Shown here piece after piece: positions 8,306 to 31,100 of a stretch of DNA of 32,000 bases. The notes under the pieces were generated by a model. The model was not told the origin of the DNA and made no database searches. It saw only the letters and a list, made by a program, of their open reading frames with translations. How positions within the stretch are numbered: the first letter of the stretch is position 1; every line of letters begins with the position of its first letter. The stretch is taken from NCBI GenBank assembly GCA_025839675.1, contig CP104013.1, positions 900,001-932,000 on the forward strand. The letters are read 5' to 3'. The stretch comes from Candidatus Lokiarchaeum ossiferum. Lineage in GTDB: Archaea; Asgardarchaeota; Lokiarchaeia; Sigyniarchaeales; Promethearchaeaceae. The translations under genes were made by a program, and so were the position numbers.

Positions 8306-8306
8306 C

Positions 8307-11421: not shown

Positions 11422-11560
11422 TCCGAGATAGCCAAGCCTGGTCAATTTTGGTGTACTGGTAAATTCCTATATTAGATTATGGGTCAGACCTAAGACTATC
11501 GGCGCTGGACTTAAGATCCAGTTTCATAGGAATACGTGCGTTCGAAGCGCACTCTCGGAA
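11422..11560 (+). tRNA. tRNA-Leu(UAA), class II, with a ~55-nt insertion (putative intron, ~11446-11500) in the D-loop
   Basis: Acceptor TCCGAGA/TCTCGGA plus discriminator A. D-arm GCC-AAGCCTGGTCAA[insert]GGC. Anticodon stem CTGGA/TCCAG with loop CTTAAGA. Variable arm TTTCATAGGAATAC. T-arm GTGCG-TTCGAAG-CGCAC. Confidence 0.7.
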
Positions 11561-11753
11561 CTATCTTTTTCTTCTATTTAATGACGATAAGCGACTTTTG
11601 GGATACATATTCAAATTTCATTTAGTAAGGATGTGTACATTATATTGACATTAATAAATAAACTTGAGAAAGTCGACTGAATCTACCATTAGAAACAAAA
11701 AAATTGGTAAAGTTTAGCAATGAGTTCTTTGCTAAAAAGGGAATGAAAAAAAG

Positions 11754-13154
11754 TTAATTGAGAATAAATTTGCTCAACTTTTCAGATAAAGTTAAAAATA
11801 AACTCCCCGCAACCCTCTCTTCTTTAGCGACTAATTCTTTTCGGGAAGCGGAACATAATTTCAATAATTCAGAAACACCATCCATAAGAGAAAGATCAAT
11901 AAAGGTTTTATGAGGTCGGAGAATCCGATCAGGATTTTGAAGGCTCACCACTATTTTTGGGGCAATTTCATCAATCACAGCATGCAATTGAGCATCTTTT
12001 CGATCGGGTTCAAAACTTTTATCCAGAATAGAATGCATTTTTTGCAAAACATCTTCGAGAAATTGTTTCATGGTATGATTTGGAGGGAAATTAATTTTGT
12101 CTGCCACTCGGCGTTCGGTAAATTTCATGATTTCTTCCCAAATGTGAGTGTATCGCCGCACTTGATTATAAACAACCTTATTGATTTCGGTGGAAACATG
12201 ACCATGAAATTCTTTATCGGGTTTATCCATATAGTCATTAGAAGCTTGCATTATTGCAGTATTATCTAAAAACTCAAGAGTCGTGCGACCAATAGGCCCA
12301 TTTGGATGACATATAGCAGGTAAAATGACAGCCCCTGTTTTTTTATGAAGAGAAATAAAACTTTGAGGAGTGTGAATTAGATAAGGTAGCTTACCATGGA
12401 GACAAGGGGTTCGAAGCTGGGAAGAAGAGGCATAATCATGGTAAACAACAATGGAATGATTATTTTTCAAATCTCGGGTTAAATGGGGAGCAAGGAAGGA
12501 AAAAGATGTGCTCCCATAAATATAGAAATTATCGTACCGTTCTCGATTGTTGTATTCATACATGGGAATATTCTTGATGCTCCCGATAGTTGACACTTTA
12601 TAATGATTAGGATGGCAAACTAATCCGAAATTTGCATGAAAAAATTGACCCACATGCGGGGTAGTAATAATAACCCCTTTTCCTTGAGCAATCGCAGCTT
12701 CAAAACGCTCAAAATGTTTTAAGGATATATTTTTTCTTCCATTCCTGTGAACGATTAAGGGAAAATTGAAGAAAATATCCATCATTAAGGAACCCATATA
12801 TTTGGAACTTGCATCACATAATTTTCGGATTGATTTTTCAGAATAATTTGGATGAAGTGCTCGAAGACCCGCTTTTGTTCTTCTTTTTACTTTTCTTGAA
12901 GTACCTAAGATAAAATGACCAATAAAATGACCTATGCTATTAAAAAAGTGCAAGGGAGTATAGAGAAACATGCGATAGATCCCTTTCGTGATGTAAAATC
13001 TTAAAAATGAATAAGCAGGACCAAGTGAATCGCCCCAACTTTGTCCCTCTTTTTTGTCCCTTATCCCTTTTACTTTTTCCTTTTTAGTTTTAGCCTTAAA
13101 TTCAGTGCGAGTATGATTAATTTGTTTCGGGATGAAAATTTTTACTCCAACCAT
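11754..13154 (-). CDS. LpxL/HtrB/MsbB-family (lipid A biosynthesis-type, PF03279-like) acyltransferase homolog with N-terminal TM and ~110-aa C-terminal extension
   Basis: Compared by eye with my recollection of E. coli LpxL. RRTKAGLRALHPNYSE resembles RRAKIVHRNLELCFPEMSE. GKGVIITTPHVGQFF resembles KRGILLVGIHFLTLE. VVYHDYASSSQLRTPCLHGK...TGAVILPAICHP resembles WYAPDHDYGPRSSVFVPLF...SGACLVPFVP. The His is conserved but the +5 acidic residue is Phe. Confidence 0.55.
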   Translation of the reverse strand: MVGVKIFIPKQINHTRTEFKAKTKKEKVKGIRDKKEGQSWGDSLGPAYSFLRFYITKGIYRMFLYTPLHFFNSIGHFIGHFILGTSRKVKRRTKAGLRALHPNYSEKSIRKLCDASSKYMGSLMMDIFFNFPLIVHRNGRKNISLKHFERFEAAIAQGKGVIITTPHVGQFFHANFGLVCHPNHYKVSTIGSIKNIPMYEYNNRERYDNFYIYGSTSFSFLAPHLTRDLKNNHSIVVYHDYASSSQLRTPCLHGKLPYLIHTPQSFISLHKKTGAVILPAICHPNGPIGRTTLEFLDNTAIMQASNDYMDKPDKEFHGHVSTEINKVVYNQVRRYTHIWEEIMKFTERRVADKINFPPNHTMKQFLEDVLQKMHSILDKSFEPDRKDAQLHAVIDEIAPKIVVSLQNPDRILRPHKTFIDLSLMDGVSELLKLCSASRKELVAKEERVAGSLFLTLSEKLSKFILN

Positions 13155-13544
13155 TTTTCAAAACTGGTACATTTTTGATTAAATTTATATTTTTTTGCTC
13201 AAAATGGAGGTTTCAGATTACCGATTTTTGGTATTTAATTGAAAAAGGGAAGAGAAAAATTCAAGAGAAGCCCTATATCAAATGAGATATTTTGAATTTA
13301 AAAATTGGAGGATTCACATCAAAAGGATGATTTATCCGTTTTTTCTTTAAAATAATTGTTCCTAAGATAATACTTTGAATCACAGCAACAAAAAATACAC
13401 TGTAAGTCAAACGGATTAAATCGTTTGGAAAATTTAATTTGCAAAAGACTCATTTGAAAGCATAAAAAATGTAGTCTGTGAAATTAAAAAAGGTTCCCCA
13501 TTAAAGAGTTCGATTATTTAAGGGAAATCTTTTATTGATGGAAA

Positions 13545-13973
13545 TCATTGAAAAATATCTTGAAACAACACTTGCACATTTGGTCGTGTATCAGAGTCAT
13601 GCAAAAATATGGAAATGTCCCCTTTAAAATCGGAATACAAAGTTTCCAACTCATGACCCCATCTAGCTTCAAACCGTACACCAAAGTTTTTAAGAGCATC
13701 CATCACAGGGCGCGTAGGACTCACTCCAATAACTAAAACTTCTAAAGAGTACTTCCCAGCCCGCATGATCAAATATTTATTTGAAATTTGGGCATGCCCA
13801 ATTTGTCCTTCTTTTTGGGGAATGATAATTTGCTTTCGAGCAATGGTTTGGCGGATTTCTTCGACAAGATTTGCATCAAATTCAAGATTTGGGGCGGATT
13901 GAAGAAAAATCACATGGAAATTTTCATTATGAAACACCAATAAATATTCATAGGACTGACTTAGGGGCACCAT
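13545..13973 (-). CDS. hypothetical small protein, possible longin/roadblock-like fold
   Basis: 142 aa with an ATG start. EYLLVFHNENFHVIFLQS ... LVEEIRQTIA ... YLIMRAGKYSLEVLVIGVS ... VMDALKNFGVRFEARW gives a beta-beta-alpha-beta-beta-beta-alpha pattern. Confidence 0.4.
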   Translation of the reverse strand: MVPLSQSYEYLLVFHNENFHVIFLQSAPNLEFDANLVEEIRQTIARKQIIIPQKEGQIGHAQISNKYLIMRAGKYSLEVLVIGVSPTRPVMDALKNFGVRFEARWGHELETLYSDFKGDISIFLHDSDTRPNVQVLFQDIFQ

Positions 13974-14104
13974 TGATCAGTTAAAATATGAATTGCTACC
14001 TTAAATTTTTTAGGGCTCTCAAAAGACTTGAAAGGAAAATTTGAAAGAATGAATGAATAGAAAAAAGGAGAAAAACCTAGAAAACAAGATATTGTATAGG
14101 ATTG

Positions 14105-15046
14105 TTAGCTATAGCGCATCATGGTATCAATACTTTTAACCGCTTTTTCGGCGATTTCTGCTGGAACTCGCACTTCAAATTGAGATTCTTGGGGGGTCCC
14201 GATAGATTCTAAAACGAGAAGGATTTTCTCAAGAGTGATTTTCTTCATATTTCGGCAAACAGCATCCGATGAAAGAGGAAATAGTTTTTTAGAAGGATAT
14301 TTATCTTGTAGATGATCACTAAGACCAATTTCAGTCCCCAAAATGAATCCTGCAGGAATATCATGAGTTTCCACATACTGAATCATTCCAGAAGTCGAAC
14401 CAACATAATCGGCTTGTCTTAGGACTTCAATGGGAGATTCAGGATGGCAAAGTAAATGAGCCCCTGGATGAGCGGCTCGGGCTTCATGAACATGATCAAT
14501 AGAAAATTGATTATGAACCAAACAATTCCCATTGGGAGGAACGGGAATGACATTCAATCCTGATTCTTGCTTCACCCATGCAGCGAGGTTTTTATCTGGT
14601 CCAAATAAGATATTGTCGGTTTTCCAATCTTTGGCCACATTTTTAACAATGGTCAATGCATTGGATGAGGTGCAACATACATCCGCAGCAGCCTTAGTTT
14701 GGGCCGTAGTATTGACATAAACGATTAATGGTGCTTTAGGATATTGGCTTTTATACTCTAAAATTACAGAAGGATTAATAAAGTTAGAAAGAGGACAACC
14801 TGCCCTTAACTCCGGAGAAAGAACGACTTTATCTTGATTAAGAATTGAGGCTGTTTCTGCCATGAACTTAACAGCAGCAAACAGGATATAGGGAGTATTA
14901 ATCTCATTTTTCGCAACTTTGGCTAGACCCAAAGAATCGCCCATAACATCGGCTATTTTTTGAACTTCCAAAGGTTGATAATAGTGAGCCAGTATGGTGA
15001 CCCCTTTTTCGGTTTTAAGACGGCGAATTTTATCACTCAAGGACAT
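14105..15046 (-). CDS. nadA: quinolinate synthase
   Basis: 313 aa with ILAHYYQ, GDSLGLA, KFMAETASIL and conserved Cys residues in positions typical of NadA. Confidence 0.85.
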   Translation of the reverse strand: MSLSDKIRRLKTEKGVTILAHYYQPLEVQKIADVMGDSLGLAKVAKNEINTPYILFAAVKFMAETASILNQDKVVLSPELRAGCPLSNFINPSVILEYKSQYPKAPLIVYVNTTAQTKAAADVCCTSSNALTIVKNVAKDWKTDNILFGPDKNLAAWVKQESGLNVIPVPPNGNCLVHNQFSIDHVHEARAAHPGAHLLCHPESPIEVLRQADYVGSTSGMIQYVETHDIPAGFILGTEIGLSDHLQDKYPSKKLFPLSSDAVCRNMKKITLEKILLVLESIGTPQESQFEVRVPAEIAEKAVKSIDTMMRYS

Positions 15047-15224
15047 TATACTTGGATTAATGCCACAATGAATAATAAGTTAATTTGAATCTTTAAGAAG
15101 GAAAACCACTATATCAAATATAACAACTCCAAATTTTTTAGAAGAAAATTTGTAATATATGTGATTAATTAATGCACAACCTTTAAAAGAATGGAGATCT
15201 TTAGTAACCCAGAGGAAACGAAAC

Positions 15225-16172
15225 ATGACCCTAACATGTGACTTAAGTAAAGATAATTGCTTCCAAGTTTTGATTGTTGGAGGTGGTCCTGCCGCAGTAT
15301 CGGCCGCGATTTACTGTCATCGATTTGATTTGAAAACTATAATGATTGGTCAAGAATATGGAGGAGCAATCGCACGGACATATCTACTTGAAAATTACCC
15401 CGGATTTCCCGAAACTTCGGGTTATGATCTTATGGAATCATTTCAAAAGCATTACGAACACTTCAAAATCCCCTTTGTCTACGAAACAGTATCTAAAATT
15501 GAAAAAGATAATATTGATGAATTTACAGTGACGGTGTCAGGGGGAGAACAATATCACGCTTGCTCAGTGATAATTGCTACAGGCACAAAACATCGAAAGA
15601 TGAATGTCCCGGGAGAAGATGAATTTCATGGAAGGGGAGTATCCTATTGTGGAACTTGTGATGGTCCATTTTTCCGTGACAAGGATATTATCGTCGTTGG
15701 AGGCTCGGATAGTGCAGCGGTAGAAGCCCTCTTTCTGTCTAGATTTGGACGAAAGGTGAATATTGTGTATCGAAGGGATAAAATCAGATCAGAACCCATC
15801 AATACTGCTCGATGTCATGCAGATGAAAAAATTGAGATAATTAATAATACGATCATCACTAAAATAAATGGTACCGATAAAGTGGAATCGGTTGAATTTC
15901 AAGACGGAACCATTTTTCCAACCGATGCGGTTTTTATTGAAATTGGAGCAATTCCTCAAAGCGATCTTGCAAAAGAGTTAGGTGCAAAACTTAATGATCG
16001 GGGTGAGATTATTGTAGATAAATACGCCCAGACCAATATTTCAGGATTATTTGCAGCGGGAGATGTCACAGATATTCGGGAAAAGCAAGTAATTACTGCT
16101 TGTGGACAAGCTGTTACTGCATCCTATTCTGTTCGCGATTATCTTGACGAAAAAGGTTGCACTGACGAATAA
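15225..16172 (+). CDS. trxB: thioredoxin-disulfide reductase
   Basis: FAD motif VGGGPAA, redox-active CGTCDG, second dinucleotide motif VGGSDSAAVEA, and C-terminal GLFAAGDV. SD-like AGAGGAAA lies upstream. Confidence 0.85.
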   Translation: MTLTCDLSKDNCFQVLIVGGGPAAVSAAIYCHRFDLKTIMIGQEYGGAIARTYLLENYPGFPETSGYDLMESFQKHYEHFKIPFVYETVSKIEKDNIDEFTVTVSGGEQYHACSVIIATGTKHRKMNVPGEDEFHGRGVSYCGTCDGPFFRDKDIIVVGGSDSAAVEALFLSRFGRKVNIVYRRDKIRSEPINTARCHADEKIEIINNTIITKINGTDKVESVEFQDGTIFPTDAVFIEIGAIPQSDLAKELGAKLNDRGEIIVDKYAQTNISGLFAAGDVTDIREKQVITACGQAVTASYSVRDYLDEKGCTDE

Positions 16173-16392
16173 TTCGATTCAGGATCCATTTGAGATCGCA
16201 ATTTTTTTTATTAAGTTCTTCTATACGAAAGCTTTTAGAAACTTCATGAAGGCTTTTTGCAAAATATAATTATAAATAAGAATCTTGTTCTATGAGCCAT
16301 AGGGCTAATTTTAAGAAGAATAAGAAATATCTTCAGGCAATCTAATATAAAAAATATAAAATAAAATCAAGTTTTGGTGGTTTCACGTAAAA

Positions 16393-17274
16393 ATGGTTTT
16401 TAAGAAGATTCATAATAAAAAACACCTATTCATTCTCGGAATACTTGTGTATTTTTCAATCTTGAGCACTTTTAAAATTGGAAACTCAATTCCACCTTTA
16501 GAAACTGATTTAGAGTTTTCTGCAGGTGGGGGAGATTATATCATTTATTATTATGAAAATGGATTAGAAACATCCTACGAGACCTTTGAAACTGGGTATC
16601 GTAAAATTTTATTCACAGAAATCCAAAACTCGACGGAAAAAGTCGTATTTTCGATTTCAGAATTTACGAATTCATCCACAATTGAGAATTGTTTAGGGGA
16701 TCAACTGGAGAATTGGACTTTAACTCAGACTTACAAAAAAACCGTGGATAAATCAAGTACCTCCATTTATAATTTAAAATATTTGATGCCGAAAGATATT
16801 ACGGTTTTACATCATCTTCTCCAGAATGATACTTTTGAACAAAGCCAATTTGGACAAGAACGGGCAGAATATTTTTCCGACAATCGATTTATCGAAACTA
16901 ACACGTTGTCTATTACTGGTACGAATTACACAGCCCAAATTGCTTGGAAAGTTGAATTCGCAAAAAATGAATACTCAATCATTTCCATCACTCGCCGATA
17001 TGAATTAGAGGTAAATGTTGAAATGGAATATAATCGAGCAAATTTATTGAAGGAATATTCCGCAATGTGGTCAGAGCAAACAATTGAAGATACAGGCGCC
17101 CGAAAACCAGTAATTCATACCGAACGACTCATACTATATACAACCTCGATTATCGAACCCCCTGAACCACGAAAAGGGATTACAGGATTTCCAACTTTAA
17201 TATTCATAGGAATTTTTATCGGAACCGCCCATATCCTACAAACCTCCCATCGAAAATGCTTATTGAAAAAATAA
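16393..17274 (+). CDS. secreted/anchored hypothetical protein with signal-like N-terminus and TGF + TM + basic C-terminus
   Basis: N-terminus KKHLFILGILVYFSILSTF. Several N-x-S/T sequons. C-terminus GITGFPTLIFIGIFIGTAHILQTSHRKCLLKK. Confidence 0.55.
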   Translation: MVFKKIHNKKHLFILGILVYFSILSTFKIGNSIPPLETDLEFSAGGGDYIIYYYENGLETSYETFETGYRKILFTEIQNSTEKVVFSISEFTNSSTIENCLGDQLENWTLTQTYKKTVDKSSTSIYNLKYLMPKDITVLHHLLQNDTFEQSQFGQERAEYFSDNRFIETNTLSITGTNYTAQIAWKVEFAKNEYSIISITRRYELEVNVEMEYNRANLLKEYSAMWSEQTIEDTGARKPVIHTERLILYTTSIIEPPEPRKGITGFPTLIFIGIFIGTAHILQTSHRKCLLKK

Positions 17275-17280
17275 AATATC

Positions 17281-17517
17281 TTAGCTGAAAAAATTATAAT
17301 CTGGATGGTATCGAGGGATTATTGACTTCTTCTTCAATTGCAAACTATTTTGATGAATTTTATCGACCAAGGCATCTATTATAAGATAAAATAAAATGAT
17401 ACCGCACAGAATGGCAAATTGAGGAATAAATACAAATCCGATAACAACACCAAGGGTTGCAAATATGAACAATTCAAATCCATGTAGTTTCAAACAAATC
17501 CTCCCCAAACACTTCAT
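17281..17517 (-). CDS. small hypothetical membrane protein (2 TM)
   Basis: 78 aa with an ATG start and two hydrophobic spans (FIFATLGVVIGFVFI, AILCGIILFYLII). Confidence 0.35.
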   Translation of the reverse strand: MKCLGRICLKLHGFELFIFATLGVVIGFVFIPQFAILCGIILFYLIIDALVDKIHQNSLQLKKKSIIPRYHPDYNFFS

Positions 17518-17994
17518 AGAGTTGAAATATTTAAAGATGTTGATTTATTTTTTCCAAGTTTTGAATTTTATAAAGGATACACTCAAAATATTGATAGATG
17601 ATGGTCTTTAGGAATGGAATAACCAATTTTCTGGAATTTTTTGTTCTTTCCAAGAACTTTGGCGTATTTTTTGAAGTTCAAATTAAAGAACTACCACATT
17701 TTATCAATGTTTTCTATGTATAATATACAAAAATGGATCTTTTCTCGCCAATTATCATCCAATTTAATTGGTTTTTAAAAACTAAGAAATATATTGTAGC
17801 GATTAAAAAAAAGATGACTTTTTGTAATAACATTTTAAAAATCCCTTCATTTTCAAATTTTTTCGGAAAAAAAAGCCTTATTATAGATTCTACATAAACA
17901 AGTACATAGTTGGCGACTTAGTCTATTTTTTTAAAAAAATGTGATAGAATTGCCAATTAAAATTCGATTTATTTTGTAGAAAAAGGTTGTAAAA

Positions 17995-20154
17995 ATGTTT
18001 GTTAATGTATGGTCTTTATGGCTTGTGTTACTTTCTGCTATCGTTTCACTTGTAGTAGCATTTCTTTTAAAAAAGAAAGTTAGCACAGCTGATCCAGGTA
18101 ATGAAGAAATGGTTAAGGTTCAAGGGTATATTCGAGATGGTGCTAACGCTTTTGTAAGGCGTCAGTATAAAACCTTAGCAATTTTCGTTGGTGGATTAGC
18201 GATTGTAGTCGGAATTATATACTATATTTATCCTATCGAAACTGAAGGTACAAATGTTAAGTGGTGGGTAATGGTATTATCGTTCATTGTAGGATCCTCT
18301 GCTTCAGCTTGGGCTGGGTGGTTAGGAATGAAAGTTGGTGTTGATGCTAATGCCAAAACTGCTCAAGCAGCGACCAAAGGATTAACTCCCGCCTTCGATG
18401 TTTCCTTCTTTGGAGGGGCAGTTATGGGTCTTATTGTCACTTCTGCTGCATTAGGTGGAGTTTGGTTACTTTATTATATTATTGGAGAACCGATAGTAAT
18501 TTTAGGATTTTCCTTCGGAGCTTCAACCATTGCACTTTTTGCTAAAGCCGGTGGTGGTATCTTTACCAAAACCGCCGATGTTGCCGCCGATTTAGTCGGT
18601 AAAATCGAATATTCCTTACCGGAAGATGATCCCCGCAATCCTGCCGCCGTGGCAGATAATGTTGGGGACAACGTTGGAGATATCGCCGGAATGGGTGCAG
18701 ATCTCTTTGATTCATATGTGGCTTCCATAATTGGAGCGATGTTGTTAGGTTATAGCGTATCTTATACAGGTCTTTTTGATTTAGCTAACGCAGATATTTT
18801 AGCATCTTTTCCTTTAGTTATTAGCGCAGCAGGACTATTTGCATCCATCGTAGGCATTTATGTAATCTCTAAAATGAAGAAAACTAGCCCTGGAAAGGCA
18901 CTTAATAGTGGCACATATCTTGCAGCAGCATTATTCATAGGCATTGGAGCATTATTTACTTTCCTCCTTACCACATCTAGCGGAATCGATACAAGTGGAA
19001 GTGGACGATTTGAAAATATGTCAGATAAATTATGGTTAAATTATGGAGCCGCAGCTTTTGGAGTTATCGCAGGAATTATTATTGGATTAACCACCGACTA
19101 TTATACCGATGATTCCAAACATCCTACCCAAGCCGTAGCCGAATCTTCCCAACAAGGCCATGCCTTGAATATCTTAACCGGATTTTCCTATGGGTTAATG
19201 AGTGTCGCACCTCCAACACTTGGAATTGTGGTCGTAATGGGAATTTCATATGCATTAGATGGAGTTATTGGTGTTGCTAGCGCATCCACAGGTATGCTTG
19301 CAATTGTAGGAACGATCGTTGCAAATGATGCTTATGGTCCTATTGTAGACAATGCCCGTGGTATTGCCGAACAAGGTGGGCTTGAAGAAGATGTTATTGC
19401 CTTGTGTGATAAATTGGATTCCGCGGGAAATACCGCAAAAGCAGTTACCAAAGGATTTTCCATTGGGGCCGCTGCTTTAACCGTATTAGCCTTATTATAT
19501 TCTTTCATGGAAGAGGCAAAACTTCTTTTAGTAGATACTGATTTTGTGACAGGACTCGATGTTCTTTCTGTTGATGTTATGATTGGACTTTTATTAGGAG
19601 TTATGATTCCGTGTATCTATTCGGCCGTTTTAATCTTTGCAGTGGATAAGAATGCCCAAGTTATGGTCAAAGAAATTCGACGCCAATTTGAAGAACATCC
19701 AGGTATTTTGGAAGGTACCGAAGCAGCCGATTTTGAAAAATGTATCGATATTGCAACTGTAGGTTCCCTAAAAGCATTGGTTGTTCCTTCATTATTATCA
19801 GTTGTTGCACCAATTGTTGTAGGAGTTTTATTCGGAGTACGTGCTTTAGGAGCTTTCTTGGCAGGAACTATCCTCATCGGATTCATCTTTGGATTACTCT
19901 TATCCAACGCAGGTGGAACATGGGACAATGCCAAGAAATACATTGAAGATGGTAACTTAGGTGGTAAAGGCACATTGGCTCACGCCGCTGCCGTGACCGG
20001 AGATACTGTCGGAGATCCGTTCAAGGATACCGCCGGACCGGCAATTAATACCTTAATTTGTGTGATGTCCCTTACCGCTAGTATGTTCCTTCGATTATTT
20101 GTGGGTATAAACAGTGGAGAAGGCTTAATTCAATTAGGTACATTAATAGCATAA
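17995..20154 (+). CDS. hppA: membrane-bound proton-translocating pyrophosphatase, K+-independent-type signature (copy 1)
   Basis: 719 aa with multiple TM spans. Hallmarks are GGGIFTKTADVAADLVGKIE, DNVGDNVGDIAGMGADLF and VTGDTVGDPFKDTAGP. GNTAKAVTKG carries the Lys and Thr that mark K+-independent enzymes. Confidence 0.9.
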   Translation: MFVNVWSLWLVLLSAIVSLVVAFLLKKKVSTADPGNEEMVKVQGYIRDGANAFVRRQYKTLAIFVGGLAIVVGIIYYIYPIETEGTNVKWWVMVLSFIVGSSASAWAGWLGMKVGVDANAKTAQAATKGLTPAFDVSFFGGAVMGLIVTSAALGGVWLLYYIIGEPIVILGFSFGASTIALFAKAGGGIFTKTADVAADLVGKIEYSLPEDDPRNPAAVADNVGDNVGDIAGMGADLFDSYVASIIGAMLLGYSVSYTGLFDLANADILASFPLVISAAGLFASIVGIYVISKMKKTSPGKALNSGTYLAAALFIGIGALFTFLLTTSSGIDTSGSGRFENMSDKLWLNYGAAAFGVIAGIIIGLTTDYYTDDSKHPTQAVAESSQQGHALNILTGFSYGLMSVAPPTLGIVVVMGISYALDGVIGVASASTGMLAIVGTIVANDAYGPIVDNARGIAEQGGLEEDVIALCDKLDSAGNTAKAVTKGFSIGAAALTVLALLYSFMEEAKLLLVDTDFVTGLDVLSVDVMIGLLLGVMIPCIYSAVLIFAVDKNAQVMVKEIRRQFEEHPGILEGTEAADFEKCIDIATVGSLKALVVPSLLSVVAPIVVGVLFGVRALGAFLAGTILIGFIFGLLLSNAGGTWDNAKKYIEDGNLGGKGTLAHAAAVTGDTVGDPFKDTAGPAINTLICVMSLTASMFLRLFVGINSGEGLIQLGTLIA
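18535..18713. repeat. 179-bp tract 100% identical to the reverse complement of 24515-24693 (hppA copy 2)
   Basis: Checked base by base. The flanking positions 18534 and 18714 differ between the copies. Confidence 0.9.
19079..19184. repeat. 106-bp tract 100% identical to the reverse complement of 24071-24176
   Basis: Checked base by base. The flanking positions differ between the copies. Confidence 0.9.
19900..20042. repeat. 143-bp tract 100% identical to the reverse complement of 23219-23361
   Basis: Checked base by base. A further ~50 bp upstream differs at only 2 silent sites. Confidence 0.9.
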
Positions 20155-20175
20155 TAAAAAATTCATTTCTTTTGA

Positions 20176-20195
20176 TTTTTTTTGTCTTTTTTTTT
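20176..20195 (+). terminator. oligo-T tracts after hppA copy 1
   Basis: T8 (20176-20183) and T9 (20187-20195) lie about 20-40 nt after the stop at 20154. Confidence 0.45.
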
Positions 20196-20322
20196 ACAAT
20201 TTTTAAAAATCCAATTCAAATAATGGAAGTTTTTCAATATAATGAACATTGATTAATTAGAAATCAAAAGACTTGTATTTCTAAAAGAATTTACATTTTT
20301 GAATCTGTATCAAAACTCAAAG

Positions 20323-20331
20323 AAAAAAAAA
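20323..20331 (-). terminator. oligo-T tract (minus strand) directly after the AOR stop
   Basis: A9 on the plus strand equals T9 on the minus strand, and it abuts the TAA at 20332-20334. Confidence 0.45.
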
Positions 20332-22125
20332 TTATTTCCAATGGTGCAAAGAATAATATTTATCAACCATTTGATCAATATCAACTGTAGAATTCTTGGT
20401 CGGGCCTCGAGGTAAAGTTTCCTTAATAAAACGTTCAGGCAGGGTGTCATCCTTACGACTCAATCCAAACTTAGTATTAAGAGTATGTTGCAAATCTACG
20501 GATTTAGTCATAATTTCTTCAAGATGTTGAGGAGTATATTTAATTCCAGTACAAAAATTCAATAATTTTGAAGTAGTCTCAAACGTCAACACATCCATAC
20601 ATAACCCAATATTTTTACACATTGTCAAAGAATCTGTTAAAAGAGCGATTTTTTCAGAATAATAGACCAATGCTGCTTTTCCTTCTTCTGAAAGTCTATG
20701 AGCTGCTTCAATTGTCCCAAATCGTTTCAAAGATTCGTCTTCACGATTGGTTAATTCAAAAAATGGTTCTGCCCGTAAATGATCCCCACCACGTGATGCA
20801 ATAGCATAAGTAAGTCCATAAGCTTTGATACCCCGTGGATCGCCGTTGATGATATCCAACCCTTTTACTTGTAAAACTAATTTTTGCGCTTCTTCTGAAA
20901 ATTGTTTTGAGAATTTGTAAGCTCCCATTGCAAGTTTATCTCCAATTCCTTTCCGAAAAGTGATAAGCTCGATAATATTACGAACGCTATCAATATCTCC
21001 CCAGTCGAGAGTTATATCATCAATGTCACTAGGTAGAATTAATTTCTTTTCTTGACATTCCATAATCCAAGCAATAACTTCAGAAGTGGAAACAGAATCT
21101 AAACCCATTTGATTTAGGTAAGTATTCATTTCTAAAGCAAATGCAAGATTATTATTTCCAATCTTTGAAGTAAAGCTACATAGCGTTTCATATTCTGGAC
21201 CTTCTGCTTCAAATTCATTACACACATAATATCGCGAGCAATGTAAGTTACAATTAAAACAAGCCTTATTTTTTACTTTATATTTCTGTGCTAGTTTTTC
21301 TCCCGATATTTCATCCAGATAATCACAAATCCCATCTTGAAAATGCTTTGTTGGTAAAATTCCTACCCCATTCAAGTCACTCATCAGCATGGTAGTACCC
21401 AGATTATACCTTTTTTGATACTCTCCATGATTTCGAATTAACTTCTTCATTGATTTCACTTCATCATAAAATGCAAGCGAATCAGCATAATCTAAAATAC
21501 CGCTGCCTTTTACTGCAATAGCCTTAATATTTTTTGATCCCATCACAGCACCCATCCCTGTTCGGCCATTCACCCGATTTCCACTAGAAACAATTGTTGA
21601 ATAAAGGACTTGATTTTCTCCAGCAGGTCCAATGGCTGCAACTTGAATTGAATAATCTTTTTGAGATTTTCTAATTGAATAGGTAGTATCCACAATAGTA
21701 TGATGTTTTAATTCAGGGCACTCGATAAATTCAACACCCTTATTAGAAATATTAAGATAAAGAAGAGCAGAACTCTTCCCGGTTATTATGATTTGATCAA
21801 AACCAGTCAATTTCATTTCCGCTCCAAACTGGCCTCCTGCTGCAGAATCACCGAGAATCCCAGTCATCGGAGATTTTGCAGTTACAATTACATAACTTGA
21901 GGATGGAAGAATTGAACCCGTTAAAGGTCCAACTCCAAATATCAATAGATTTTCGGGTGACAAAGGATCACAATCAGGATCTAATTCTTCAAACAAGCGT
22001 TTGGTATTAGCCGCTCTTCCACCAATCACATCTCGAATCCATTTTTTATCAAGTTCTTCAATTTTAAATCTCCGTTCAGTCAAATTAATTCGTAAAATCT
22101 TTCCACCATATCCAAATTTAAGCAT
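20332..22125 (-). CDS. aor: aldehyde:ferredoxin oxidoreductase family (tungstopterin-type)
   Basis: 597 aa. The N-terminus FGYGGKILRINLTERRFKIEEL is typical of AOR. 4Fe-4S ligands CFNCNLHC plus a downstream Cys (CKNIGLCMD), and GGDHLRA. Confidence 0.85.
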   Translation of the reverse strand: MLKFGYGGKILRINLTERRFKIEELDKKWIRDVIGGRAANTKRLFEELDPDCDPLSPENLLIFGVGPLTGSILPSSSYVIVTAKSPMTGILGDSAAGGQFGAEMKLTGFDQIIITGKSSALLYLNISNKGVEFIECPELKHHTIVDTTYSIRKSQKDYSIQVAAIGPAGENQVLYSTIVSSGNRVNGRTGMGAVMGSKNIKAIAVKGSGILDYADSLAFYDEVKSMKKLIRNHGEYQKRYNLGTTMLMSDLNGVGILPTKHFQDGICDYLDEISGEKLAQKYKVKNKACFNCNLHCSRYYVCNEFEAEGPEYETLCSFTSKIGNNNLAFALEMNTYLNQMGLDSVSTSEVIAWIMECQEKKLILPSDIDDITLDWGDIDSVRNIIELITFRKGIGDKLAMGAYKFSKQFSEEAQKLVLQVKGLDIINGDPRGIKAYGLTYAIASRGGDHLRAEPFFELTNREDESLKRFGTIEAAHRLSEEGKAALVYYSEKIALLTDSLTMCKNIGLCMDVLTFETTSKLLNFCTGIKYTPQHLEEIMTKSVDLQHTLNTKFGLSRKDDTLPERFIKETLPRGPTKNSTVDIDQMVDKYYSLHHWK

Positions 22126-22639
22126 GTTTTTCCCCCCATTTCTTTCTTATCTCATTTCCTTTGGTGGCTATATATAGAAAACGTCTTTCAGAAACATTCA
22201 TTCCTTTTGAATTCTCTTTAAAATTTGATAAACTTACCGTTTCGATACAATTTGGTGCAAATTGAATGGCTTGTTCAGTACAAACATCTACACATTGTGG
22301 ATTACCACCACATAAATCACAAACATAATAAATTCTTTCAAAAACTTCTATTGCACCGATAGGACAGCTTTTTTCGCAGGCCCCACATCGAGTGCAAATT
22401 GTTGGACTTATGATAATTTGACCCATTGATCCAACCGTGAGTGCATTGAATGCACAGGATTTGATACAGAATCGTTCTTGGCATTGTTGACATACGATTG
22501 GTCCATCAATCCCAGTGGAATATGAGCTCATAATTTTAATTCGGCTAAGATTTCTGCTGCTTTTTCCTGAGCGTAAAAAAGCACATGTAGTTTCACATTG
22601 TCGGCAACCTGTACATTTACTAAGATCAATTTTTATCAT
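22118..22639 (-). CDS. poly-ferredoxin-like 4Fe-4S protein (four Cys clusters), likely AOR electron-transfer subunit
   Basis: Cys motifs are CTGCRQCETTC, CQQCQERFCIKSC, CTRCGACEKSCP and CDLCGGNPQCVDVC. The stop overlaps the AOR start by 8 nt (ATGCTTAA). Confidence 0.75.
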   Translation of the reverse strand: MIKIDLSKCTGCRQCETTCAFLRSGKSSRNLSRIKIMSSYSTGIDGPIVCQQCQERFCIKSCAFNALTVGSMGQIIISPTICTRCGACEKSCPIGAIEVFERIYYVCDLCGGNPQCVDVCTEQAIQFAPNCIETVSLSNFKENSKGMNVSERRFLYIATKGNEIRKKWGEKHA

Positions 22640-22656
22640 CTTAACACCTTCAAATT

Positions 22657-22932
22657 TTAAATTTCTTCTACTTCAATCCGATATTGAACTAATCCATCAG
22701 GATCAGGGCAAGAAAACTGTTGAGTTTTTTTTACCCAATGTTTGTCATCAAGTTTATCTTTTATAGCTAAAATTGGAAATACAGGCATCATACTTTGTAA
22801 TGCCCACAAGCAAATATGTTTCCCATCGGGAACAATAATCTTTGAATCAATAACATGAAAATAATCACCAATTAACATTGGTAAATTACAATATCCATGA
22901 ATTTTTTCGACTGTTACTTTTATCGTAGTCAT
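22657..22932 (-). CDS. small Cys-containing protein, TIGR04076-like (assigned from memory)
   Basis: 91 aa. The pattern IKVTVEKIHGYCNLPMLIGDYF...HICLWALQSMMPVFPIL...FSCPDPDGLVQYRIE resembles that family as I remember it. It is the first gene of the AOR operon. Confidence 0.4.
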   Translation of the reverse strand: MTTIKVTVEKIHGYCNLPMLIGDYFHVIDSKIIVPDGKHICLWALQSMMPVFPILAIKDKLDDKHWVKKTQQFSCPDPDGLVQYRIEVEEI

Positions 22933-23121
22933 AGGAATTCATTTTTATGATTTTTAGAAATATAGATAATGTACTTCAATATTTTATTCTATAAAAACAT
23001 AAAAATTGGGATATTCTCAAGAGGACTAAAAAATCGTTTATCACAGTATTGATTATAAAAAAGTAGAATTGAAAGAATAAAAAAAAAGTGTGGATAATCC
23101 ACTAAGATATTCGAGTTAATT

Positions 23122-25230
23122 TTATAATTGAATTAACCCGGCACCGCCTCCAACAGCAACAAATAATGGTAAGAATATACTTGCTGTTAAAGACATTACA
23201 CAAATTAAGGTATTGATGGCCGGTCCGGCGGTATCCTTGAACGGATCTCCGACAGTATCTCCGGTCACGGCAGCGGCGTGAGCCAATGTGCCTTTACCAC
23301 CTAAGTTACCATCTTCAATGTATTTCTTGGCATTGTCCCATGTTCCACCTGCGTTGGATAAAAGTAATCCAAAGATGAAACCGATGAGGATAGTTCCTGC
23401 CAAGAAAGCTCCTAAGGAACGAATTCCGAAAATAATTCCAACAACAATAGGTGCTCCAACAGATAATAAGGATGGCACAATTAATGCTTTAAGGGAGCCT
23501 TTGGTTGCAATATCGATACATCGTTCAAAATCGGCTGCTTCGGTGCCTTCCAAAATACCAGGATGTTCTTCAAATTGGGTTCGAATCTCTTTGACCATAA
23601 CTTGGGCATTCTTATCCACTGCAAAGATCAAGACTGCGGAGTAGACACATGGAACCATAACTCCAAGGAGTGCTCCAATCATTACATCAACATCTAACAA
23701 ATTCAATTCCATTACAATATCAACGGTAGCTTCTTCAGCTTCGACCATGAAAGAGTAAAGGAGTGCGAGTACTGTAAGTGCAGCAGCGCCAATGGAAAAT
23801 CCTTTGGTAATTGCTTTTGCGGTATTTCCGGCTGAATCTAATTTATCACAGAGGGCGATAACATCTTCTTCCAAGCCACCTTGTTCTGCAATACCTCGAG
23901 CATTGTCCACAATTGGACCATAAGCATCATTAGACACGATTGTTCCAACAATAGCAAGCATTCCAACGGAAGCACTGGCAACTCCCCAAACACCATCTAA
24001 GGTGAAGGAAATAGCCATAGCAACGACAATTCCAAGGGTTGGAGGGGCGACGCTCAATAAACCGTAAGAGAATCCGGTTAAGATATTCAAGGCATGGCCT
24101 TGTTGGGAAGATTCGGCTACGGCTTGGGTAGGATGTTTGGAATCATCGGTATAATAGTCGGTGGTTAATCCAATAACTAATCCAGCAACAACACCAATTG
24201 AAGCAGAACCCCAATTTAGCCATAAACGATTTTTCATTTCATCAGTAATTCCAGGAGTTGTGAAGGTTAATAGGGTAAACATAAGTGCAATTACTATGAA
24301 TAAACCAGTAGCAATCCATGTACCAGAATTAAGCGCTTTTCCAGGACTTTCTTTTTGCATCTTTGAAATTATGATAATTCCAATGATAGAAGCAAATAAT
24401 CCAGCGGCACTAATAATAATTGGATAAGTAGTAAACACTTGAGCATCAACAATTTCCATATTTCGGAAAACGGAGTAAGCTAATAACATAGCGGCAATTA
24501 AAGAAGCAACGTAAGAATCAAAGAGATCTGCACCCATTCCGGCGATATCTCCAACGTTGTCCCCAACATTATCTGCCACGGCGGCAGGATTGCGGGGATC
24601 ATCTTCCGGTAAGGAATATTCGATTTTACCGACTAAATCGGCGGCAACATCGGCGGTTTTGGTAAAGATACCACCACCGGCTTTAGCAAAAAGAGCAATG
24701 GTTGAAGCTCCGAAGGAAAATCCTAAAATAATCAAAGGATCTTCAGCAAAGAAATATAATATGAATACTCCACCTAATGCAGAAGCGGAACAAATTAATC
24801 CCATAACTGCTCCTCCAAAGAAGGAAACATCAAAGGCAGGAGTTAATCCTTTGGTCGCTGCTTGAGCGGTTTTAGCGTTAGCATCGACACCAACTTTCAT
24901 TCCTAACCATCCAGCCCATCCAGAAGCAAAGGAACCCAGGAGATATGAAAGAACCATTAAACTCCAGTGGAAATCAAGTGAACCAGATACACCGTAAAGA
25001 ATACCAAGTGCAATTGCCAACCCTAATACAAATACTGCAAGGGTAGTATATTGGCGCTTGATAAAGGCTCCAGCTCCATCTCGAATATATCCTTGAACCT
25101 TAACCATTTCTTCGTTTCCAGCATCTGCGGTATCCACTTTTTTTTTAAGCAAGAATGCCGCGACAAAAGCGGCAATTGCTGCGACGAGGACCAACCAAAT
25201 GGTCCAGACACCTGTTACTGCAAAGATCAT
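23122..25230 (-). CDS. hppA: membrane-bound proton-translocating pyrophosphatase, K+-independent-type signature (copy 2)
   Basis: 702 aa, roughly four-fifths identical to copy 1 by eye, with the same hallmark motifs. GNTAKAITKG. Convergent with copy 1. Confidence 0.9.
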   Translation of the reverse strand: MIFAVTGVWTIWLVLVAAIAAFVAAFLLKKKVDTADAGNEEMVKVQGYIRDGAGAFIKRQYTTLAVFVLGLAIALGILYGVSGSLDFHWSLMVLSYLLGSFASGWAGWLGMKVGVDANAKTAQAATKGLTPAFDVSFFGGAVMGLICSASALGGVFILYFFAEDPLIILGFSFGASTIALFAKAGGGIFTKTADVAADLVGKIEYSLPEDDPRNPAAVADNVGDNVGDIAGMGADLFDSYVASLIAAMLLAYSVFRNMEIVDAQVFTTYPIIISAAGLFASIIGIIIISKMQKESPGKALNSGTWIATGLFIVIALMFTLLTFTTPGITDEMKNRLWLNWGSASIGVVAGLVIGLTTDYYTDDSKHPTQAVAESSQQGHALNILTGFSYGLLSVAPPTLGIVVAMAISFTLDGVWGVASASVGMLAIVGTIVSNDAYGPIVDNARGIAEQGGLEEDVIALCDKLDSAGNTAKAITKGFSIGAAALTVLALLYSFMVEAEEATVDIVMELNLLDVDVMIGALLGVMVPCVYSAVLIFAVDKNAQVMVKEIRTQFEEHPGILEGTEAADFERCIDIATKGSLKALIVPSLLSVGAPIVVGIIFGIRSLGAFLAGTILIGFIFGLLLSNAGGTWDNAKKYIEDGNLGGKGTLAHAAAVTGDTVGDPFKDTAGPAINTLICVMSLTASIFLPLFVAVGGGAGLIQL

Positions 25231-25672
25231 TTTTATTTACACCATTTCAAATCGTTATTTCAAACAATTTGGTAATGTTCACAATAAAATCCACAAAAGT
25301 AAGGTTTTAATTTTTCAAACCAAACATTTCAACAGATTTTTTGTGGTTAGTGTAGGATCATGGTCGATTGTTTTAAAGCTTTATTTTTATTTGACTGAAA
25401 AAATTAAAAAATGATGATATATTTATGGTTACAAACCACCAATTTGCTCAGAAGACTGTTTTCGAATACTTTTAGCTCTAAAAAAGCTCGATTAACTGAT
25501 CAAAAGCTTCTAAAAGAAAAACGATTTTTATTTTCCGCAAAAAATGTTTCATTTTCCATATTTCAATGATCAAAACAAAATATTATTTTAGAAAAATAGT
25601 CCACAATAGCAACAAAATGAAAAAAAGATAAATTTCTTATGAGTTTTTTCGTTGTATAATATTGAAATCTAT

Positions 25673-26516: not shown

Positions 26517-26895
26517 TTTCTTCCTCAAAAATTTTGAATACTCTCACTCGATGTGATAGTTATACATGGATCTTATCGTCTAAATAAATTTTAAGATTTG
26601 GCAAACAAAAAATAAATGTATTTAATTTTAGAACGAAATTTGACTTTTAATTGAAGTTACTGCAAATTGCTGGAAACATCAGAAAAGATAACCAAAACGA
26701 AGTTAAAATATTCATTTCAGTTTTTCATTGAATGAAAAGCGGATTAAAAGCATAAAATTCCATAAATATGGATTTGAAGAAAGATTCCCAAGGATTCTTC
26801 AGCAGAATCAAAAAATTAGAGCAAGATTAAGAAAGAATCACATCAGAAAAAAGTTTTATTGTTAATGGGAAAGTGATCCCATTTAAAAATGCTGT

Positions 26896-28128
26896 ATGAA
26901 TCTAGTTGGTAAGCAAATGATTACCTTAGAAACACTGCTTGAAGAACAAAAAGCGGTTTTAGTTCTTAGTAATGGAAAAATTTTTCATGGAATCGGTTTT
27001 GGAGCCACAACTAAAGCAATTGGTGAATTAGTATTTACAACCTTCACTGCAGCAGGTTACAATTGTGCATTGACAGACCCAAGTAACCATGGGCAACTTT
27101 ATACTCTAACCTACCCTCTTGTTGGAAATTATGGCGTTCCTCCATGGGAAAAGGATCAAACGGGGATAGAAAAGTGGTTTGAAAGTGATTCTATTAAGTG
27201 CTCCGGGTTTATCGTCCATGAAGCATGTAAAAATCCTTCTCATTATGAATCGACAAAGAATTTAGATATGTTTTTGAAAGAACACCATATTCCTGGAATT
27301 GAACGCATAGATACTCGTGAATTAACGAAAATCCTCAGGAAGGAAGGAGTTCAGTTAGGGTTGCTTCAAGTATTTGCCAAAGATGAACTCATACCCTCCG
27401 ATACAGAGTTGTTGCAAGAAGTTAAAAATGCTCTAGATCCAAATCAACGCCATTTGGTCGCTGAAATTTCTAGAGAAAAAGTTCAAGAGTTAAGAATAGC
27501 CGAAGAAAGAAGTATTGGAACAGTAATTGTAATTGATTGTGGAGTAAAGAATAACATTTTACGTGAATTAAATAAACGAAACTTAGATGTAGTAATCGTT
27601 CCCTACAATACTTCTTATGAAGAAATAATGAAATATGATCCAGATGGAATCTTAATCAGTAATGGTCCTGGAGATCCTAAAAAGTGCATTGAAACGATTG
27701 AAGTAGCTAAAAACATCATAAATAACAATATCCCATGCATGGGAATATGTTTAGGAAATCAAATTATAGGGTTAGCTGCCGGGGGAGATACTTATAAAAT
27801 GAAGTTTGGACATCGAGGCGGAAATAAACCAGTTATTGATTTACGTACAGGAAAGGGATTTATTACAAGTCAAAATCATGGCTATGCACTAAAAATCACC
27901 ACCTTGCTTAAATCGGGATTTAAACCCCTTTTTACGAATGCTGATGATGGAACTAATGAAGGAATTTATCATCCAGAAAAACCGATCTTTGCGGTCCAAT
28001 TCCACCCAGAAGCATACCCTGGTCCCGAAGATACAACCTATTTATTTGACGATTTTCTTCAAAACATCGCTTTTCGCGCTTTTACACATCCACGAGATAA
28101 AAATCAATCTATTGAGGAGGAGATTTAA
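26896..28128 (+). CDS. carA: carbamoyl-phosphate synthase small (glutaminase) subunit
   Basis: GATase class I triad context GICLGNQ and VQFHPEA. N-terminal CPSase small-chain domain (LVLSNGKIFHGIGFGA). Confidence 0.9.
   Translation: MNLVGKQMITLETLLEEQKAVLVLSNGKIFHGIGFGATTKAIGELVFTTFTAAGYNCALTDPSNHGQLYTLTYPLVGNYGVPPWEKDQTGIEKWFESDSIKCSGFIVHEACKNPSHYESTKNLDMFLKEHHIPGIERIDTRELTKILRKEGVQLGLLQVFAKDELIPSDTELLQEVKNALDPNQRHLVAEISREKVQELRIAEERSIGTVIVIDCGVKNNILRELNKRNLDVVIVPYNTSYEEIMKYDPDGILISNGPGDPKKCIETIEVAKNIINNNIPCMGICLGNQIIGLAAGGDTYKMKFGHRGGNKPVIDLRTGKGFITSQNHGYALKITTLLKSGFKPLFTNADDGTNEGIYHPEKPIFAVQFHPEAYPGPEDTTYLFDDFLQNIAFRAFTHPRDKNQSIEEEI
28114..28122 (+). promoter_or_regulatory. Shine-Dalgarno site for carB inside the carA 3' end; TAATG stop/start overlap
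   Basis: GAGGAGGAG lies 5 nt upstream of the ATG at 28128. The carA TAA (26126-28128 read as 28126-28128) shares its last A with the carB ATG. Confidence 0.6.
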
Positions 28129-31100
28129 TGCCATTAGACCTCTCCATAAAAAAATCTTTAGTTTTAGGATCTGGAGCAATTCGTATTGGTCAAGCAGGAG
28201 AATTTGACTATTCAGGATCTCAAGTATTAAAAGCCCTCAAAGAAGAAGGCATTTATACAATATTAATCAACCCAAATATTGCAACTATTCAGACTGATCC
28301 AAATCTCTCTGATCAAGTCTATTTATTGCCAGTCACTGCAGAATTTGTTGAAGACATTATTAAAAAAGAACACCCTGATAGCATTTTATTATCTTTTGGA
28401 GGTCAAACAGCCTTAAATGTAGGAGTAGAACTGTATAAAAAAGGGATTTTAAAAAAATATGGAATTCGAGTTTTAGGAACACCGATTGAATCAATACAAA
28501 ATACAGAGGATCGTGAATTATTCCGTAAAATAATGATGGAATGCGACGTGGAGATCTGCAAGTCCGCTACTGCAACGAATAAAGAAGAAGCAGAAAAAAT
28601 AGTCCTTGATATTGGATATCCAGTAATGATTCGGGTGGCCTACACATTAGGTGGAGCAGGATCAGGAATTGCCCACAATAAAGAACAGTTTGATGCCTTA
28701 GTTGATAAAGCACTTGCTCAATCAGTAATTTCACAAATACTTGTGGAAGAATATGTAGGTGGGTGGAAAGAAATCGAATATGAAGTTATGCGCGACAAAG
28801 AAGATAATACAATCACAGTATGTAATATGGAAAACTTTGATCCTTGCGGTATTCATACAGGTGAATCGATAGTAGTTGCCCCAAGCCAAACTCTCACCAA
28901 TGAAGAATATCAAATGCTTCGATCGGCATCAATTCGCGCAATTCGACATATTGGTATTATTGGAGAATGTAATATTCAATATGCACTCCACCCAACATCT
29001 AAAAAATATATTGCAATTGAAGTCAATGCACGTTTGTCTCGCAGTTCTGCTTTAGCGAGTAAAGCAACAGGCTATCCTTTAGCATACATTGCAGCGAAAC
29101 TAGCTTTAGGTTATACCCTACTTGAATTGAAAAACAAGGTAACAAATATTACAACAGCTTGTTTTGAACCTGCTCTGGATTATGTCGCATTAAAAATGCC
29201 TCGATGGAATTTAGAAAAATTTCAACGCGTTTCTCGTAGAATTGGAACACAAATGAAAAGTGTTGGGGAGGTGATGGGGATAGGAAGAACATTTGAAGAA
29301 GCCTATCAAAAATCCATCCGTATGCTTGATATTGGTATGAGAGGGGCGGTTGGAAATGATCTTGAAAAAGAATGGAGTGAATTAAGCAGAGATGCATTAG
29401 AACATGAATTAAATTCACCCACAGACATTCGATATTTATTGATTCCTGTTGCCTTGAGAAAGGGTTTATCTGTGGATGAAATTTATGCTTTAACCAAAAT
29501 TGATAAATGGTTTCTTCATAAAATTGAACATATCCTGCAAATAGAAAAAATGATGCAAAATATGCCTTTAGATACCGAAAATCATATAAAAAGCATGGTC
29601 ATTGCTTATGCAAAACGATATGGGTTTTCTGATGGGCAAATCTGTCGTTATTTTGATCAAGAATCCTATGAAATTCGTAAATTTCGGCATAAAGCGGGGA
29701 TTCAACCCGTTGTTAAGCAAATTGACACTTTAGCAGCAGAATGGCCAGCAAACACAAATTATTTGTACATGACGTATGGAGGAACTACTGATGATTTGGA
29801 TTATTCCAATGCGGAACAAAACAACCTAAACATCAATGGTAAGAAGAAGGTCATAGTTTTGGGTTCTGGAGTTTATCGGATTGGATCTTCAGTCGAATTT
29901 GACTGGGGCTGTGTAAACATGGCTTGGGCACTTCGAGAACTTGATGTAGATGAAGTGATAATGATTAACTATAACCCAGAAACAGTTAGTACCGATTATG
30001 ATGTGAGTGATAAACTGTATTTTGAAGAATTAAGTCCTGAGCGCGTCTTAGACATTTGCCATAAAGAATATGCCCAAGGATTGATTGTGAGTGTAGGAGG
30101 ACAAATTGGGAATAATCTAGCTCAAGAATTTACCAAATATAAGAAAGCTTTCGATGCAACAGGAATAAAAATTTTGGGAACCTTAGGAAAAGATATTGAT
30201 AAAGCTGAAAATCGCATGAAATTTGGAAAAATAATGGATTCTTTAGGAATTATTCAACCCCGCTGGGCTCAGCTCTTAGAAATGGAAGATGCCTTAATGT
30301 TTGCCAAAAATGTTGAATATCCTGTTTTAGTGCGACCATCATATGTACTCTCTGGAGCAGCCATGCGAGTGGCCACGCGAGAATCAGAACTGAGAGAATA
30401 TTTAGAACTTGCAGCAGTAGTTTCCAAAGAAAATCCAGTAGTAATAACCAAATTTTTTACTGATGCACGAGAAATTGAATGTGATGGAGTTGCGGATGGA
30501 GAGAATGTGTTCATTGCTGGAGTAGTTGAACATATTGAAAATGCAGGTGTACATAGTGGAGACGCCACTATGAGTCTTCCCGCACCATCACTGCCGTATA
30601 AAATGTGGGAAAAAATTCAGCATGAGACACGCAGAATTGCATTAGCTATGGGAGTGCAAGGTCCATTCAACATCCAATATTTAGTAAGAGATAAAAAAAT
30701 CTATGTAATTGAAATGAATCTCCGTAGCTCCCGATCCATGCCATATGTAAGTAAAACAATAGGCATGAATCTAATTAAGTTAGCCGCCGAAGTCATCATG
30801 GGAGGCAAAATACCCAAACGGTTAATAAAACATTCAATTCCCCCATATGTTTGTATAAAAACCCCTCAATTTTCTTTTATGCGCTTAGAAGGAGCAGATC
30901 CAATCTTAGGAGTTGAAATGATGTCGACCGGAGAAGTAGCATGCATTGGTGAAGATTTTCCTGATGCTTTAATTAAAAGTATGATGGCCGCAGAATTCAA
31001 AGTACCACTTGAATGTGGTAATATTTTGATTACAGTTGCCGGGATGGAGTTAAAACAAGCGATTACACCTTTTGCATTACGCTTGGAAGAGTTAGGTTTT

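Follow-up and report, generated by a model that had tools for sequence, protein, structure and literature searches.

Two membrane pyrophosphatase genes of Candidatus Lokiarchaeum ossiferum strain B-35 (chromosome of 6,035,313 bp), which face each other within a 32,000-nucleotide stretch of contig CP104013.1 (positions 900,001 to 932,000; hereafter the window, to which all coordinates refer), very probably undergo recurrent, short-patch and non-reciprocal interlocus gene conversion in their most conserved segments. The genes, hppA-A (17995-20154, plus strand; 719 aa, UYP44458.1) and hppA-B (23122-25230, minus strand; 702 aa, UYP44462.1), are convergent and bracket a minus-strand three-gene cassette that includes a gene for aldehyde:ferredoxin oxidoreductase (AOR). 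This arrangement had been proposed from a reading of the DNA alone (the original prediction) and is confirmed here by the open reading frames (ORFs) and by matches of both products to PF03030 (E ~1e-222 for each copy) over profile positions 1-644/645. The protein sequences of the two copies are 80% and their DNA sequences 79% identical; homology does not extend beyond the coding sequence, and the regions that flank the genes on either side are unrelated.

Within this pair, three tracts are exactly identical in inverted orientation: tract 1 (179 bp) at 18535-18713 in hppA-A and, as reverse complement, at 24515-24693 in hppA-B; tract 2 (106 bp) at 19079-19184 and 24071-24176; and tract 3 (143 bp) at 19900-20042 and 23219-23361. 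A mismatch flanks every one of them, and the arms of tracts 1, 2 and 3 are spaced 5.8, 4.9 and 3.2 kb apart, respectively; both the positions and the abrupt ends are exactly as the original prediction had given them. A minor perfect run of 41 bp links 19633-19673 of hppA-A to the reverse complement of 23588-23628 of hppA-B, in a region that is also converted in the related strain B36. Tract lengths were evaluated by permutation, shuffling the states "same codon" and "synonymous change" among the 536 degenerate codons that encode identical residues in both copies and keeping amino-acid differences fixed. The longest run obtained was 31 codons in 20,000 shuffles and 32 codons in a 10,000-shuffle repeat, as compared with observed runs of 59, 47 and 34 codons in B-35; for the B36 pair, runs of 52, 46 and 35 codons were observed against a shuffled maximum of 39. 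By a GENECONV-type criterion, the tracts of both pairs are longer than the background divergence allows. Outside the tracts, a synonymous change is found in 41% of the identical-residue codons of the two B-35 copies, and at this rate the probability of encountering 138 unchanged codons in succession is ~8e-33. A sliding-window analysis (20 codons), of the kind originally recommended as a check, shows the synonymous divergence ranging from 0.4 to 1.0 over most of the gene and dropping to exactly 0 in the tracts and nowhere else. Segments of intermediate synonymous divergence (0.17-0.32), for instance at 18331-18390, 19405-19464 and 19645-19764, look like older, partly decayed conversion events.

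The only other genome found to share this architecture is that of strain B36 (CP163304, locus L081), which has a genome-wide average nucleotide identity of 97.2% with B-35 (bioRxiv 10.64898/2026.02.13.705702). The A and B copies of both strains were combined in a four-sequence codon alignment, in which sites were classified as grouping the paralogs of each genome, as grouping the orthologs of the two strains, or as crossed, when the A copy of one strain is grouped with the B copy of its counterpart. In the B-35 tracts, the informative sites number 33 and every one of them groups the paralogs, with 0 ortholog-grouping and 0 crossed sites. Outside the tracts of either strain, 32 sites group paralogs, 159 group orthologs and 19 are crossed (Fisher's exact test on paralog versus ortholog sites inside and outside tracts, p = 1e-21). 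Synonymous divergence (dS), computed by the Nei-Gojobori method on the tract codons, is 0 between the B-35 copies over ~100 synonymous sites. The same codons yield a dS of 0.51 (A versus A) and 0.47 (B versus B) between strains, with 35-37 of 100 synonymous sites differing, and of 1.66, which is saturated, against the single hppA copy of a more distant metagenome-assembled contig, L082; the dS between the A and B copies outside the tracts is 1.20. Inside the tracts, the paralogs of one genome are therefore closer to each other than to the orthologs of a related genome. The tract codons differ between strains and not between paralogs, and hence they are synonymously free and both copies change together. 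The synonymous difference between paralogs in the tracts has an upper 95% bound of ~0.03, compared to 0.6 (uncorrected) elsewhere, so the last conversion events must have been very recent; the original statement that the copies are "actively exchanging" sequence holds in this sense of very recent exchange.

In B36, the perfect A/B runs measure 158, 138, 71, 44, 64 and 107+80 bp. Two further regions are involved besides the three of B-35, and the end points differ from those of B-35. The tracts of the two strains thus overlap, while their boundaries and their sequences are lineage-specific, as recurrent events would leave them. B36 does not carry the identity seen in B-35; instead, the two copies of a genome vary in concert and are distinct from those of the other genome, which answers the question put to related genomes in the original prediction and lends strong support, together with the 33 to 0 partition of sites, the absence of synonymous divergence and the shuffling results, to its proposal of mosaic gene conversion between paralogs.

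Identity of this kind could in principle be maintained by purifying selection acting on the nucleotides themselves, through codon usage, mRNA structure or an embedded element, with no exchange between the copies. The tracts do coincide with the most conserved segments of the protein: across 29 further homologs from Lokiarchaeia, conservation averages 0.96, 0.77 and 0.90 in tracts 1, 2 and 3, as opposed to 0.65 elsewhere, and tract 1 spans the invariant motif region GGGIFTK...DNVGDNVGDIAGMGADLF. The divergence between strains is also somewhat lower inside the tracts (dS ~0.5) than outside (~0.9), which counts against conversion as a complete account and is compatible with some additional synonymous constraint or codon bias in the tracts, possibly present but far too weak to produce 0 differences in 100 sites. 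The four-sequence test refutes nucleotide-level constraint as the cause of the tracts and leaves it next to no probability: codons that show no difference in 100 synonymous sites between paralogs differ at 35-37 of them between strains and are saturated against L082, every informative tract site groups the paralogs within a genome, and the tract boundaries of B-35 and B36 are different. Perfect tracts that group the paralogs within each genome and have differing boundaries are hence attributed to conversion. The ends of tract 1 point the same way. They are synonymous mismatches lying within blocks of identical residues, and thus mark the edges of a DNA exchange rather than of a protein constraint; the ends of the other tracts are closer to amino-acid differences.

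Several further considerations weigh against the conversion model as formulated here. The pair is carried by two genomes only, so that the term "recurrent" rests on two alleles of the module. The end products do not reveal non-reciprocity, that is, a donor left unchanged, and the saturation of synonymous sites against the outgroup conceals the direction of transfer. The B-copy arms of the tracts, save for the edges of tract 3, depend on two finished assemblies. Transfer is nonetheless taken to be non-reciprocal, since the copies would not become homogeneous through reciprocal exchange alone. In the mechanism that we propose, conserved protein segments would remain similar enough in nucleotide sequence to allow strand invasion and heteroduplex formation, with RadA-type homologous recombination as the presumed machinery. 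Conversion within these segments would leave the protein unchanged and so be neutral, whereas tracts running into diverged regions would be aborted by heteroduplex rejection or selected against. Each conversion would renew the identity that permits the next one, leading to repeated re-homogenisation, while the N-terminus, the loops and the C-terminus would be free to diverge and to keep their copy-specific residues. These variable parts, which had been singled out in the original prediction as possible carriers of a functional difference, do stay distinct between the copies.

Perfect identity between paralogs may also originate in assembly or polishing, if the reads of one copy are used to correct the other. 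Both genomes are hybrid assemblies of enrichment cultures from one laboratory, and the tract interiors on the B side have no independent check at read level, two circumstances that leave some room for such an artefact. Short-read assemblies break at repeats of 31 nt or longer. Two Logan short-read contigs from separate sequencing runs, L083 and L084, match the window at 100%. The first (SRR32148623; 19633-22947) spans tract 3 in hppA-A and extends on either side into unique sequence, and the second (20013-23248) stops exactly 30 nt (k-1) inside both copies of the tract, as would be expected of a de Bruijn graph at a true exact repeat. In addition, the tracts lie between regions of 20-50% divergence, where reads map uniquely, and two assemblies with different tract boundaries display consistent co-variation. 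An assembly artefact is consequently regarded as extremely unlikely. As a separate observation, L083 ends on one side at the 41-bp shared run and on the other 15 nt ahead of the start codon in the TIGR04076-family gene of the cassette; these ends, and the uninterrupted passage of the contig through a 143-bp repeat, could be due to sparse coverage of copy B in this run or to an end resembling that of a transcript. The contig index yielded no exact match to hppA-A.

The original prediction further held that a crossover within a tract would invert the AOR segment (3.2-5.8 kb between tract arms), so that both orientations may coexist. In the full form of this reading, both orientations would be present at detectable frequency, and crossovers within the tracts would flip the cassette, generate chimeric pumps and move the cassette from the hppA-B promoter to that of hppA-A. 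Inversion is mechanistically possible on these grounds: perfect inverted repeats of 106-179 bp flank the segment, a flipped cassette would, by the coordinates, once more follow an hppA gene and be read in its direction, and in the tuf genes of Salmonella almost half of the conversions selected at nt 1126 came with an inversion (PMC5485169). The sequences examined nevertheless show one arrangement throughout. B-35 and B36 are collinear and have the module in the same orientation despite a module dS of ~0.9, and the A-type N- and C-terminal parts are linked in B-35, in B36 and in the single-copy L082, indicating no net crossover. Contig L083 shows the reference junctions across tract 3, so that this contig and the genomes of B-35 and B36 all agree on a single orientation. 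A contiguous block of swapped A/B sites, the footprint expected from two inversions with different crossover points, was sought among the B-35/B36 sites and none was found. The 19 crossed sites were considered as a candidate for such a block and rejected, as they are scattered third positions mixed with orthology sites and are best explained by homoplasy. Lastly, no recombinase gene is apparent among the scanned ORFs of the window (at least 100 aa), in which Pfam and NCBIfam profiles identified no integrase or invertase domain. The coexistence of both orientations thus finds no support in collinearity, in the linkage of the termini, in the search for swapped blocks or in L083, and it is considered improbable.

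The comparison between strains also delimits an island of divergence of ~7.1 kb that comprises the module, extending from 18191 to 25336 (approximately 10197-17400 in L081). The flanks of the island (7995-17994 and 26529-30114) are 99.1% identical between B-35 and B36, whereas the module is overall ~82% identical: 83.0% in hppA-A from position 18191, 81.3% in hppA-B, ~81-84% over most of the cassette (20421-21000 left out) and 51-61% in two spacers. Its left edge is sharp (18190/18191) and located 196 nt inside hppA-A, and its right edge is looser, lying near 25336 with a decay to 26200. A patch of ~98% identity within the AOR gene (20480-20960) suggests a second, smaller recombination event. 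Most differences in the island are synonymous, with a nonsynonymous divergence (dN) of 0.08-0.14 versus a dS of ~0.9. These features suggest that one of the strains replaced its module by homologous recombination with a divergent relative of the same architecture, in which case B-35 and B36 exchange divergent alleles at the kilobase scale. A locally accelerated rate of mutation or diversification, with no import of an allele, would fit the rough agreement between the island and the repeat-bounded module, given that recombination can be mutagenic; yet the excess of dS over dN and the divergence of the spacers are those of long separate evolution under purifying selection, and a sharp left breakpoint and a ~98% patch inside AOR are typical of recombination mosaics, which makes local acceleration very unlikely. 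We assign a similarly slight probability to a more elaborate scenario, in which the cassette acts as a flip switch operated by homologous recombination and is polymorphic in the population, and the resulting suppression of recombination gave rise to the island as a 7.1-kb, ~18%-divergent, supergene-like haplotype block. If this were true, a flip would transfer control of the AOR cassette from the promoter of copy B to that of copy A and yield chimeric pumps.

The origin of the duplication was addressed through the relatives of the locus. In L082, the segment corresponding to 20194-25619, which holds the AOR cassette, hppA-B and the region upstream of hppA-B, is absent according to a blastn comparison of the window with L082 and to the gene map. 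This contig encodes a single hppA gene, of A type and in the A orientation, between the same neighbours, and the neighbour-joining tree of the copies has the topology ((L082,(A,A)),(B,B)). The lone hppA gene of L157 and that of L159, both outgroup contigs from Lokiarchaeia, point in the same direction as copy B with respect to the homologs of p204 and carA, and the protein encoded by L157 is 77% identical to B versus 72-73% to A. L157 is a 52.8-kb Logan contig of run SRR22273277, which also yields B-35 contigs, and represents a second, more distant Lokiarchaeon with an ABC/FtsX transporter between hppA and the carA side. We infer from this distribution that copy B occupies the original position, that copy A arose from it as an inverted duplicate and is orthologous to the L082 copy, and that the L082 lineage lost hppA-B together with the AOR cassette. 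In a scan of genome contigs with hppA-A, in which universal pyrophosphatase motifs accounted for the hits, none of the matches listed was closer than 54% identity.

Pfam and NCBIfam scans place the cassette on the minus strand at 20332-22932, and it consists of the genes for a TIGR04076-family protein of 91 aa (22657-22932), a 4Fe-4S protein (ferredoxin; 22118-22639) and AOR (20332-22125). It lies downstream of hppA-B and is co-directional with it, with hppA-A facing its 3' end. Scans for sigma-70 promoters and intrinsic terminators yielded hits at background level only, these being bacterial models that are not applicable to an archaeon. A metagenome scan with the cassette-specific 91-aa protein retrieved 72 loci, in ~50 of which all three cassette genes appear in the same order, the rest being truncated at contig ends; the 91-aa protein, which comes first in this order, is apparently a constant third subunit or accessory component of AORs of this type. 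An hppA gene adjoins the cassette in none of the 72 loci, which provide no third allele of the bracket architecture, and this architecture is therefore specific to the present lineage. At the closest of these loci, L085 (86%), the gene upstream of the cassette is not an hppA gene.

With regard to the type of enzyme, both copies present Lys and Thr (GNTAKAVTKG in A, GNTAKAITKG in B) in place of the Ala and Gly found in the GNTTAAIGKG motif of the K+-dependent enzymes 4AV3 and 4A01. According to a rule attributed to Belogurov and Lahti, the combination of Lys at the A/K site and Thr at the G/T site of GNTT(A/K)A(I)(G/T)KG reportedly marks K+-independent enzymes, and characterised members of the K+-independent subfamily pump H+. 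Assignment of both copies to this subfamily, and with it the "H+-PPase" label of the original prediction, is plausible on the basis of the signature residues; on the pumped ion, database names conflict, with NCBI "sodium-translocating" on one side and "K+-insensitive proton pump" on the other. The position of the TM6 gate that aligns with Glu246 of the Thermotoga Na+-PPase is occupied by Asp (DLFDSY), and Ala stands where the mung-bean H+-PPase has Glu301 in the alignment. The DLFDS motif is encoded at 18697-18711 in hppA-A and at 24517-24531 in hppA-B, and DLFDSY is present in all retrieved Lokiarchaeial homologs except P0030, P0031 and P0042, which have DLLDSY. This configuration of the gate is unusual. 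The two proteins resemble K+-independent pyrophosphatases such as that of Pyrobaculum aerophilum (8B37) in their full-length match to PF03030 and in the Lys and Thr at the signature sites, and differ from them in the Asp gate and in the Ala at the mung-bean Glu301 position.

Two features elsewhere in the window were recorded in passing. A gene at 1018-2979 on the minus strand encodes a 653-aa protein with a small-GTPase domain of the Arf/Roc/Ras type, a eukaryote-like signature typical of Asgard archaea, and lies in a stretch of raised G+C content (0.45 versus ~0.32 around it). A tRNA-Ala(GGC) gene is predicted at 11465-11561 on the plus strand and probably contains an intron, because its 97 nt exceed the length of a standard tRNA.

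The tracts described here constitute sequence evidence for active intrachromosomal homologous recombination, in tracts of ~100-180 bp, in a cultured Asgard archaeon. To our knowledge, nothing has been established experimentally on recombination in Asgard archaea, very few of which are in culture. The results also call for caution in phylogenies and ortholog assignments of membrane pyrophosphatases in the Lokiarchaeia, since conversion draws paralogs together and masks the age of their duplication. A literature search combining Lokiarchaeum and pyrophosphatase found no paper in the collection covered. Paired pyrophosphatase genes are said to have been described in Methanosarcina mazei by Bäumer and colleagues in 2002, where mvp1 and mvp2 are reportedly adjacent and oppositely oriented in a divergent arrangement, ~50% similar, members of two subfamilies and with no reported conversion. 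That divergent pair contrasts with the L. ossiferum genes, which are convergent, belong to one subfamily, are 80% identical and carry conversion tracts.

Closer parallels are provided by genes of other functions. The mtrA and methylamine methyltransferase paralogs of methanogens have undergone long-lasting gene conversion (PMC4632066; PMC6053082), and they share with the hppA pair their nature as archaeal energy-metabolism paralogs, a similarity within genomes that exceeds that between orthologs, a mosaic structure and an occurrence in several lineages; they differ in belonging to Euryarchaeota, in the genes concerned and in a mostly tandem or direct arrangement. In a prokaryote-wide survey of concerted evolution, the archaeal genes all come from methanogens and include no pyrophosphatase (PMC6053082). 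The tufA and tufB genes of Salmonella and other bacteria are inverted paralogs in which conversion proceeds in short continuous tracts and depends on RecA-family recombination (PMC5485169; PMC6053082; Abdulkarim & Hughes; Hughes 2000). Both systems consist of inverted chromosomal paralogs with short-tract conversion that are potential substrates for inversion. The tuf copies, however, lie 762 kb from each other and are ~99% identical from end to end, whereas the hppA copies are 79% identical overall and 3-6 kb apart. Inversion has been shown by experiment for tuf and has not been observed for hppA, whose host is an Asgard archaeon with RadA rather than RecA. Unlike in tuf, conversion of the hppA genes is limited to three to six conserved islands, and the copies remain distinct elsewhere. 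Concerted evolution of inverted paralogs is a textbook process, of which the hppA pair is a new and unusually clean example.

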